Source of the DNA: Candidatus Babelota bacterium
Lineage (GTDB): Bacteria; Babelota; Babeliae; Babelales; JABDEC01
Length of the DNA: 64,000 nucleotides
Direction: 5' to 3'
NCBI GenBank assembly: GCA_013287265.1
Contig: JABDEC010000002.1
Span: forward strand, 10,105 to 74,104
Under the pieces are notes generated by a model, which did no database searches, was not told the origin of the DNA, and saw only the letters and a program-made list of their open reading frames with translations. Both the position numbers and the translations under genes were made by a program. This document shows, one piece after another, positions 1 to 1,190 of this stretch. Numbering within the stretch: the first letter of the stretch is position 1; each line of letters starts with the position of its first letter.

Positions 1-1190
1 CATCTGATTTAGGCGCAAAGGGAGAAGAAAATACGCCTTTAATTTGTGAGTTAAAAATTATAAAAGATTCGGGAATAAGAAATTCTACAATAATAATTGA
101 TGATATTAGATACTCTCAACCAAAATATATCGTGGACAAGCATCTTGAAAAGAATCCACAAGACATTTCAGCATGTGGTTATCCGACATTAGATGAAATT
201 AAAAAAGCCATTCTTGAGATAAATCCGAATTATAAATTAATTATTTATGGCGATATGGCAATTGCATACACAAAAGAAATTGAACTTTCTGATGTAATAA
301 AAGCAATTACAACAAGCAGATTTAAAGATTTAAATGAAGAATCAAGCGAATTAATTGAAACAGAAAAAACAATTTCACATGCAAAAGACACGGAAAAAGA
401 AACTATTAATTATTTAATGAAATTCAAAGACCCTCAAATTTTCACAATGCATTATAAACTATGGAATGCATTACTTTTATTAAAATCTGAACATAAACAA
501 GAAGCTTTAAATATTTTAAATAAAGTAAAATCTTTCGGCTTTAACAATTCTAGAATATCAAAATATTGCGATCAAAAAGATACAAAACAAATTATTGATG
601 AATTGTACAAAGATATAAATGCAATAATTTCGCCTGAAGAGCGACAAATGATTTTACAAAAAGGAGGAAATCCTGTTTATGGAGAGATTAAATACGAATC
701 ATTACAAACAATATTTAATGATTTAAATATTAATCAAAATGATATTTTTTATAATTTAGGTTCGGCAATTGGCAAACCACTTGTTCAAGCTTATTTGAAT
801 TTTCCATTTAAAAAAGTTGCGGGAATTGAATTATCTAAAACAAGATTTCAAAATTCAATGAAAGTTAAAGAAGAATTAGAAAAAAGAAATTTAATAGATG
901 TAAGTAGAAAGTTTGAATTAATTAATCAGGATTTTACTGAATCAAATATTGATGACGCAACTGTAATTTATACAAATTCAGCTTGTTTTCCCGATGAATT
1001 GATGAAAAAAATTACTCAAAATTGCTCAAAATTAAAAACTGATCTTAAAGTTATAACTTTAAAAATATTATCTGATTATCAAAATTATGGATTTATTTTA
1101 GAAAAAGAATATTCATTACCAATGTCTTGGACTGAAAATTCATTTTATCCGGTTTACGTTTATAAATTAAAGAAGGAAAAAAATGTTTAA
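1..1190 (+). CDS. Multidomain methyltransferase-like protein, 5' end outside the window: a paralog of the next gene fused to a C-terminal DOT1-like SAM-methyltransferase domain
   Basis: Frame 3 is open from nt 3, so the track start at 132 is an internal GTG. nt 3-600 aligns with the C-terminal half of 1183..2319 (IIIDDIRY/ILIDDMRF, YPTLDEIKK/YPTLQDIKK, HYKLWNALLLL/HFKLWNALTLI). From nt ~675 the motifs VYGE...DIFYNLGSAIGKPLVQ...AGIELS...QDF...VIYTNSACFPDEL are colinear with the DOT1 motifs VYGE / [12 protein letters not shown] / GVE / GDF / VIFVNNFAF. Confidence 0.7.
   Translation, partial: SDLGAKGEENTPLICELKIIKDSGIRNSTIIIDDIRYSQPKYIVDKHLEKNPQDISACGYPTLDEIKKAILEINPNYKLIIYGDMAIAYTKEIELSDVIKAITTSRFKDLNEESSELIETEKTISHAKDTEKETINYLMKFKDPQIFTMHYKLWNALLLLKSEHKQEALNILNKVKSFGFNNSRISKYCDQKDTKQIIDELYKDINAIISPEERQMILQKGGNPVYGEIKYESLQTIFNDLNINQNDIFYNLGSAIGKPLVQAYLNFPFKKVAGIELSKTRFQNSMKVKEELEKRNLIDVSRKFELINQDFTESNIDDATVIYTNSACFPDELMKKITQNCSKLKTDLKVITLKILSDYQNYGFILEKEYSLPMSWTENSFYPVYVYKLKKEKNV

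Follow-up and report, generated by a model that had tools for sequence, protein, structure and literature searches.

The 64,000-nucleotide stretch of DNA analysed here (the window; contig JABDEC010000002.1, positions 10,105 to 74,104 of the forward strand) opens inside a gene whose visible 3′ part encodes a methyltransferase module of the DOT1 family. The open reading frame (ORF) lies in frame 3 of the + strand and is open from the window's 5′ edge to a stop codon at 1188-1190, with the last 395 codons visible. We recovered the complete gene outside the window through an exhaustive profile search of 1.84 billion representatives, among which DOT1 family members number 258 at E≤1e-30 and 2713 at E≤1e-10. 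It encodes protein P0007, of 1035 amino acids (aa), at positions 598-3705 of contig L081 from an independent Logan assembly. The C-terminus of P0007 is identical to the window's translation, and the two DNA sequences overlap over 1334 nucleotides (nt) with 0 mismatches; L081 extends the readable sequence by about 2.5 kb upstream of the window. The start codon of the gene overlaps the stop codon of an upstream GT10-like glycosyltransferase gene. From the N-terminus onwards, P0007 consists of a signal peptide, a Methyltransf_11 domain, a DUF1647-like domain, a COMT-like methyltransferase domain, helical repeats and the DOT1 module. The features of the gene and its immediate neighbour are as follows, with window coordinates for the visible part and P0007 residues elsewhere:

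P0007 N-terminus: Sec-type signal peptide, MKILAGILLLFININS, with the putative cleavage point directly before DD, judged by eye and with a hydropathy heuristic
P0007 residues ~62-155: Methyltransf_11 domain
P0007 residues ~225-540: uncharacterised DUF1647-like (putative glycosyltransferase-like) domain, orthologous to the N-terminal part of protein P0003
P0007 residues ~560-720: class I methyltransferase domain, COMT-like
3-1190, + strand: 3′ part of the 1035-codon gene (codons 641-1035 and the stop codon at 1188-1190), from the frame-3 translation
3-250, + strand: C-terminal part of the COMT/caffeoyl-CoA-O-methyltransferase-like domain ('...LDAHW..GEENTPL..ELK.IK....IIDDIR...YPTL..IK..I..IN')
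264-566, + strand (P0007 residues ~725-820): alpha-helical TPR-like region, from alignment A1 and from helices 279-377 in the paralog model
567-1187, + strand (P0007 residues 823-1034): DOT1-family (LpDot1-like) methyltransferase module, from Pfam, PDB 9ne1 and Foldseek
1183-2319, + strand: downstream gene overlapping the stop codon, a COMT-like and helical paralog without DOT1

The window module is a DOT1-family domain of the bacterial, LpDot1-like branch. The Pfam DOT1 model (PF08123) matches visible residues 219-358 of 395 (nt 657-1076) with an E-value of 6e-21 and 75.4 bits, the gathering cut-off being 23, and scores 73.1 bits on full-length P0007. We considered whether some other family of class I methyltransferases fits better and rejected this, since the runner-up, Methyltransf_4, reaches only E 0.071. 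Among PDB sequences searched with phmmer, 9ne1_A is the best match (E 1e-13 over residues 184-376), followed by yeast Dot1p (4e-7) and human DOT1L (3e-3); a 4-sequence profile of the domain and three homologues gives 8e-25 for 9ne1 and ~1e-14 for DOT1L. The AlphaFold2 (AF2) model of the module (216 aa, predicted local distance difference test score 80, predicted TM-score 0.80) has the DOT1-type class I Rossmann fold. Foldseek searches with this model place 9ne1 at the top (E 4e-14), followed by about 45 DOT1L/Dot1p entries, and the top 25 PDB matches are all DOT1L, Dot1p or bacterial DOT1, with E from 4e-14 to 5e-11 and a TM-score of about 0.7. The Pfam, PDB sequence and Foldseek scores put the assignment far beyond chance. 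The 9NE1 entry is titled 'bacterial DOT1L methyl-transferase', and its residues in our alignment (RDAIEYVYGE, INSSTL) are those of the gate loops of LpDot1 (lpp3025) described in a recent preprint (bioRxiv 10.64898/2026.01.11.698932). The homologous module starts at about nt 567, where the helix 'KDTKQIIDELYKDINAI' aligns with the mature N-terminus of stand-alone homologues, and it is 63% identical to one of these, the secreted protein P0001. Exact-sequence searches with P0001 and with the product of the downstream gene (1183-2316) returned no match.

The sequence-only reading of this DNA had proposed a DOT1-like domain at 640-1190, at the C-terminus of a bacterial multidomain protein, and had called for recovery of the full gene and a check for a signal peptide. 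Its quoted peptide strings are present in frame 3 of the + strand, and the C-terminal position is borne out by the Pfam match and by 9ne1 as the top match by both sequence and fold, with no other class I family scoring better. The bacterial origin agrees with the genes for DnaE, arginyl-tRNA and threonyl-tRNA synthetases, trigger factor and a penicillin-binding protein (PBP) transpeptidase in the same window, and the multidomain character with the recovered 1035-aa protein, whose predicted Sec-type signal peptide agrees with export. The homologous module begins at ~567, slightly upstream of the proposed 640. Of the two functional alternatives that this reading offered, a DOT1-type effector and a DOT1-fold enzyme recruited to the glycan/methylation island, either may hold.

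The positions expected to bind S-adenosylmethionine (SAM) and to take part in catalysis are located as follows, with DOT1L residue numbers taken from the 1NW3 alignment:

675-686, + strand: VYGE motif, equivalent to DOT1L V135-E138, the SAM/substrate gate loop
747-776, + strand: SAM motif I, FYNLGSAIGK, with a non-canonical NxGxAxG for DxGxGxG (DOT1L D161 to N, G165 to A)
822-836, + strand: GIELS, with the conserved acidic residue after beta-2, equivalent to DOT1L E186
924-935, + strand: NQDF, with the conserved Asp-Phe pair equivalent to DOT1L D222-F223
969-989, + strand: YTNSACF, with the retained Asn equivalent to DOT1L N241
1119-1130, + strand: PMSW, with a family-conserved Trp

Of the 17 alignment columns in which at least 85% of 151 domains agree, the window domain conforms to the family at 15, and its only two deviations both lie in SAM motif I. 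The canonical DxGxGxG of this motif (DOT1L D161, G163, G165 and G167) is found in 151 of 155 instances from 153 proteins, and the window's is the sole NxGxAxG. The altered codons are AAT (Asn) and GCA (Ala), and both read the same in L081. All SAM and catalytic positions outside motif I, the YGE, E186, D222-F223 and N241 equivalents, are present; the N241 position is a Cys in most Dependentiae relatives ('MCSTC'). The sequence-only reading overlooked the non-canonical NLGSAIG of motif I, which bears on the SAM-binding residues that it had named as a criterion. On the whole the domain is well conserved, with a specific alteration of the SAM loop. The two substitutions, D to N and G to A, are likely to make SAM binding weaker or different, and activity may be reduced. 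Some active class I methyltransferases, COMT for example, have no middle glycine. The only other Gly-to-Ala case that we saw is an ExGxAxG in an internal DOT1 copy of the multi-DOT1 protein P0024. The Methyltransf_11 domain of P0007 also carries an unusual motif I, 'VLDIPSGLC' (L081 598-1272; P0007 residues 62-75).

The same reading had labelled the domain as histone H3K79-type, which the comparison with DOT1L does not support. The DOT1L F131 position is a Gly in the window domain ('QKGGNPVYGE' against 'YEPFSPEVYGE'), and Phe131 is required for H3K79 methylation (bioRxiv 10.64898/2026.01.11.698932). The window domain and LpDot1 align colinearly with no gap longer than 3 residues, so that the DOT1L-specific insertions missing from LpDot1, among them the 14-residue loop 273-286, are missing here too. 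In the model the next strand follows 'VITL' after only ~11 residues, and the chain stops 6 residues beyond the last beta-strand; this leaves no room for the C-terminal helix (319-331) or the basic region of DOT1L. A Lys-rich flank is absent except for a short 'KLKKEKNV' tail. With the nucleosome-binding elements of DOT1L missing, the domain is, as far as its residues tell, not an H3K79 nucleosome methyltransferase, and stands nearer to LpDot1. Several stand-alone DOT1 proteins (P0002, P0009, L086 9746-10630 and L087 2378-3505) have long Lys-rich low-complexity stretches that lie between signal peptide and domain, at the C-terminus or both. In these Dependentiae proteins the stretches look like nuclear localization signals (NLS) or nucleic-acid-binding segments; the window protein is without them.

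The window comes from a member of Dependentiae (TM6), as follows from its synteny with contig L010 and from the closest DOT1 relatives. Eleven window proteins (39-61 kb) have their best matches, in conserved order and with 44-67% aa identity, on L010, which belongs to 'candidate division TM6 bacterium RIFCSPHIGHO2_12_FULL_36_22'. The nearest DOT1 relatives in GTDB genomes are found in Dependentiae/Babeliales metagenome-assembled genomes (42-47% identity), and the next in Legionellales, Francisellaceae, Coxiellaceae, Berkiella, Alphaproteobacteria, Myxococcota and Planctomycetes. The window has a G+C content of about 27%, two tRNAs and several ankyrin-repeat proteins, and its bacterial housekeeping genes include that for PhoH in addition to those named above. 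On the strength of these genes and the TM6 synteny we rejected a giant-virus or eukaryotic fragment, an origin considered for its AT-richness, ankyrins and Golgi-type glycosyltransferase families. Those Dependentiae that have been investigated to date live inside protists as parasites (PMC6561590).

The gene is a lineage-specific fusion of an island protein with a small signal-peptide-bearing DOT1 protein. When residues 1-800 of P0007 are compared by phmmer with the 153 family proteins, only P0003 and P0004 match, both without DOT1; the remaining long DOT1 proteins of the family contain nothing but DOT1 copies, and none of the 150 family representatives in which we looked for the same fusion has it. 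P0003 matches P0007 residues ~225-820 (phmmer E 3e-115), with neither Methyltransf_11 nor DOT1. In alignment A1, P0003, P0004 and the product of ORF 1183-2319 all stop where the window protein runs on into a segment resembling P0001, placing the fusion junction at ~nt 540-566. Residues ~225-540 are paralogous to window ORF 15499-16434, and their P0003 counterpart gives a weak, sub-threshold DUF1647 match. The domain at 3-250 is paralogous to the next gene (1183-2319), P0003 and P0004 (alignments A1 and A3). A profile search of PDB with the COMT-like domain returns weak O-methyltransferase and PIMT matches, and an AF2 model of the paralog from ORF 1183-2319 matches TrmR, COMT and CCoAOMT folds with Foldseek E-values of 1e-6 to 1e-5; P0004 has weak TPR matches.

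P0003 is encoded in an orthologous island on JGI contig Ga0207103_10001, with identities between the two islands of 56% for GT2b-TPR, 56% for orf293, 54% for orf359 and 48% for the DUF1647-like protein; ~8 kb past the island edge, the same contig carries a stand-alone signal-peptide DOT1 gene (264 aa, 55% identical). On L010 a stand-alone signal-peptide DOT1 (5573-6217) sits between the gene for ribosome recycling factor (RRF) and tRNA-Lys(ctt)/tRNA-Leu(tag)/trigger factor. The window keeps the RRF-tRNA-tRNA-trigger factor order (44134-44957) and has no DOT1 there, the gap from RRF to tRNA-Lys being only 53 nt. Another stand-alone homologue, P0002, is surrounded by housekeeping and ankyrin genes. 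From the stand-alone DOT1 loci and the DOT1-less island orthologue it follows that a small secreted DOT1 protein is the ancestral state, to which an island protein was joined in this lineage. A 192-aa secreted protein also lies between RRF and tRNA-Lys(ctt) on L010, beside the DOT1 gene. Tandem arrangements of two or three DOT1 domains behind a signal peptide occur in P0006, P0008, P0010, P0011, P0024 and P0043.

All signal peptides were called by eye and by a hydropathy heuristic. A hydrophobic N-terminal segment is present in 100 of the 148 Met-starting family representatives, and clear signal peptides, in many cases with a Lys-rich linker behind them, are seen in the stand-alone Dependentiae DOT1 proteins that we inspected. 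In the Dependentiae isolate C. destructans, signal peptides have been reported on 44% of coding sequences and 78% of ankyrin proteins, which were proposed to be secreted effectors, and the Sec pathway and outer-membrane vesicles were proposed as the export route (PMC6561590). A crude hydropathy threshold is passed by 16/20 proteins of the island described below and by 20/39 other window proteins (Fisher p 0.048), and is not passed by DnaE, the tRNA synthetases, EF-Ts or RRF. Signal-peptide-like N-termini are only weakly enriched in the island, because about half of all window proteins carry them, as reported for Dependentiae.

The gene lies in an island of ~21 consecutive genes spanning window 1-24171 (both strands) and L081 1-600. 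It contains two GT2 genes, GT10-like and DUF1647-like genes, at least 8 FkbM methyltransferases and several unknowns; 19/20 of the island proteins have at their start a segment like a Sec-type signal peptide. In the orthologous island (L082 1-21671) a sugar-nucleotide epimerase/dehydratase and a DegT aminotransferase also have signal-peptide-like extensions, and GT11, GT47-like and TylF genes are present. The whole glycan pathway looks exported by its predicted N-termini, which is odd for enzymes needing nucleotide sugars and SAM. The literature that we searched (Dependentiae with glycosyltransferase or signal peptide) yielded no description of an exported Dependentiae glycan pathway. Across 164 related loci, a search for glycosyltransferase or methyltransferase genes in the neighbourhood of DOT1 found none, except for proximity in L085 and an orf359 homologue in L087; searched with the island proteins, the 164 fetched loci gave matches to ankyrin repeats and to this orf359 homologue only. 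L087 is a 3.5-kb metagenome contig on which a signal-peptide DOT1 gene (375 aa, 2378-3505) lies directly downstream of the homologue (99-992). The latter is 24% identical to orf359 (E 3e-20), so that DOT1 is linked here, for the second time and independently, to a gene family of the island.

Some further features of the island and the window were recorded. The ORF at 7222-9825 (+ strand, 867 aa) encodes a signal peptide, an N-terminal domain without assignment, an FkbM methyltransferase domain (residues 313-475) and C-terminal ankyrin repeats, and is thus a fusion of enzyme and ankyrin within the island. The motif (E/Y)I(I/T)TN directly follows the signal peptide in five + strand ORFs (5700-7211, 7222-9825, 9858-10826, 16437-17516 and 17509-18345). 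The orf359 product (16437) is distantly paralogous to the N-terminal domain of ORF 5700 (BLASTP E 8e-6), and the two share the motifs 'HIR(K/R)' and 'S(N/S)FS..A', which resemble those of GT11/GT23-type fucosyltransferases; no Pfam or PDB sequence match supports this, and searches of PDB sequences with the ORF 5700 N-terminal part and orf359 found no match. Ankyrin-repeat proteins with signal-peptide-like N-termini are encoded at 24464-25492, 48400-49740 and 49898-51136, the copies at 48400 and 49898 being adjacent paralogs with nearly identical leader peptides. The tRNA-Leu(tag) gene (44871-44957) runs into the trigger-factor ORF (44877-46289) at its automatically assigned GTG start, and the true start must be a Met further downstream, at about codon 17-18.

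The closest characterised relative is LpDot1 of Legionella pneumophila (lpp3025, PDB 9NE1). It has the DOT1 catalytic fold and no detectable histone activity, and it methylates nuclear non-histone proteins, notably SFPQ at K518; it is without the DOT1L loop 273-286 and helix 319-331, has an Ala at the Phe131 position, and is inactive as the motif I mutant G96R/G98R (bioRxiv 10.64898/2026.01.11.698932). Both proteins are minimal DOT1 cores from intracellular parasites of protists, are colinear over ~190 residues, and share the absence of the nucleosome loop, the C-terminal helix and a Phe131 equivalent. The identity is only about 26%, however, and LpDot1 is a 227-aa stand-alone protein with the canonical DxGxGxG, whereas the window domain has NxGxAxG and forms the C-terminal end of a 1035-aa chain that starts with a Sec signal peptide. 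Legionella delivers its effectors through the Dot/Icm type IV secretion system (bioRxiv 10.64898/2026.01.11.698932), and the LpDot1 target SFPQ K518 belongs to a metazoan paraspeckle protein. A 2022 review lists DOT1 homologues in all Legionella species, Berkiella, Amoebophilus, Megaviridae and 'Candidatus Dependentiae', and argues for repeated horizontal transfer of DOT1 among amoeba-associated organisms (PMC10117894).

The small secreted DOT1 proteins of the Dependentiae/Babeliales type (P0001, L085, L086, L010) are nearer still, with 45-63% identity over the module including its N-terminal helices, a clade consensus of 'KGG.P.YGEI', 'GK..VQAYL' and 'LPM.W', and an N-terminal signal peptide in all. 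They differ in being stand-alone (~200-300 aa) or tandem repeats, often with Lys-rich flanks and with no fused enzymes, in having the canonical DxGxGxG and usually a Cys at the DOT1L N241 position, and in lying outside glycan islands, L085 and L087 being partial exceptions. Dot1p and DOT1L (PDB 1U2Z, 1NW3) share with the window domain the Pfam family, the fold (TM-score about 0.75, query-normalised) and the YGE, E186, D222-F223 and N241 equivalents. By contrast, identity to them is 15-24%, and the window domain has no DOT1L-type N-terminal helical domain, a Gly for F131, an altered motif I, and neither the 273-286 loop and C-terminal helix nor the Lys-rich nucleosome/DNA-binding region. The crenarchaeal aKMT (PDB 5FA8/5FAD; phmmer E 3e-5, Foldseek E 5e-11) is likewise a prokaryotic minimal DOT1-like class I protein-lysine methyltransferase, but is much more distant, cytoplasmic and without the YGE-containing N-terminal segment. 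The P0003-type island proteins share the DUF1647-like and COMT-like domains, the helical tail, the type of signal peptide and the glycan island setting, and differ in having neither the N-terminal Methyltransf_11 domain nor DOT1.

The reading that we favour, at about an even chance, is that of an exported LpDot1-like protein-lysine methyltransferase module, tethered by fusion to glycan- and methyl-transferring domains and directed at a non-histone target outside the bacterial cytoplasm, with activity that is possibly attenuated. Exported by the Sec pathway, the protein would work, like other parts of the large Dependentiae secretome, beyond the bacterial cytoplasm, where it would have access to host SAM. 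By analogy with LpDot1, the DOT1 module would move a methyl group from SAM to the epsilon-amine of one or more lysines of a non-histone protein substrate. Because of the fusion, the activity would stay in one polypeptide with domains that transfer glycans and methyl groups, and all of them would act on or at the same target. Several points weigh against this. A glycan-directed role would suit the fusion partners and the surrounding glycosyl- and methyltransferase genes just as well; both deviant positions of motif I are at least 97% conserved in the family, and the glycine replaced here is one of the two whose Arg mutation inactivates LpDot1 (G96R/G98R), and the DOT1 domain could, from its motif, be inactive. 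The signal peptide is called only by eye and by the hydropathy heuristic.

An enzyme of the glycan pathway would use the DOT1 fold to methylate an amine or hydroxyl of an island-built glycan or a glycoprotein carrier, together with the protein's three other domains and with no host-protein effector involved. The gene's place inside the ~21-gene run of GT2, GT10-like, DUF1647-like and at least 8 FkbM genes would suit such a role, as would the single chain shared with Methyltransf_11, DUF1647-like and COMT-like O-methyltransferase domains and the adjacency of the L087 DOT1 gene to an orf359 homologue; the DegT aminotransferase and dehydratase/epimerase of the orthologous island make amino sugars with free amines plausible intermediates. 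We nevertheless consider it unlikely, since the characterised DOT1-family enzymes that we found (DOT1/DOT1L, LpDot1 and archaeal aKMT) all methylate protein lysine, the 164 loci are without glycosyltransferase or methyltransferase neighbours apart from the two cases above, and the P0002 and L010 genes stand in housekeeping or ankyrin contexts. The absence of DOT1 from the orthologous island protein P0003 further implies that it is not an integral pathway component. A more elaborate version, in which the module is one station of an exported multi-enzyme machinery that builds and methylates glycans on host SAM and nucleotide sugars, the DOT1 fold with its remodelled motif I being repurposed from protein lysine to the amine of an amino sugar or a glycoprotein carrier, seems to us quite improbable.

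The motif I changes themselves raise another explanation, that SAM-dependent catalysis was lost after the fusion through damage to this motif, leaving a folded binding or scaffold domain or one in decay. The NxGxAxG is unique among the 155 instances with both deviations in the SAM loop, LpDot1 is inactivated by Gly-to-Arg changes at motif I, including the glycine that is Ala here (bioRxiv 10.64898/2026.01.11.698932), and the ExGxAxG of the internal P0024 copy suggests that redundant copies tolerate such a change. However, D-to-N and G-to-A are conservative single-nucleotide changes, the other SAM and catalytic positions are intact, and the open reading frame and 63% identity to P0001 argue against general decay, so that we hold a pseudo-enzyme, too, to be rather unlikely. 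Far less credible is a nucleomodulin, a secreted DOT1 that enters the host nucleus and methylates histone H3K79. Membership of the DOT1 family, the life of an intracellular protist parasite with a large secretome (PMC6561590) and the Lys-rich, NLS-like flanks of related stand-alone Dependentiae DOT1 proteins would accord with it, but the F131 equivalent, the 273-286 loop, the C-terminal helix and the basic region are all missing, there is no Lys-rich flank beyond 'KLKKEKNV', and LpDot1, the closest characterised relative, has no detectable histone activity. A 1035-aa protein with four enzyme domains would also be an odd vehicle for nuclear import.

The occurrence of the DOT1 family in bacteria, its presence in Dependentiae (2022) and a characterised member, LpDot1 (2026), are already published; new here are the fusion of a signal peptide with four enzyme domains, its unique motif I and its location within a glycan/methylation island. 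The LpDot1-like module is widespread in Dependentiae as a Sec-exported protein, and bacterial DOT1 proteins have only lately been shown to be virulence factors that act on non-histone targets (2026 preprint). If the window module is inactive, it would be a clean case of pseudo-enzyme formation after fusion. If it is part of a glycan machinery, a DOT1 domain would for the first time be seen in a non-protein or glycoconjugate-coupled role. The island of signal-peptide-bearing glycosyl- and methyltransferases may outweigh the DOT1 domain in importance. If the module is active, it would represent a natural retargeting of DOT1 by domain fusion and provide a handle on host or surface modification by uncultured parasites.

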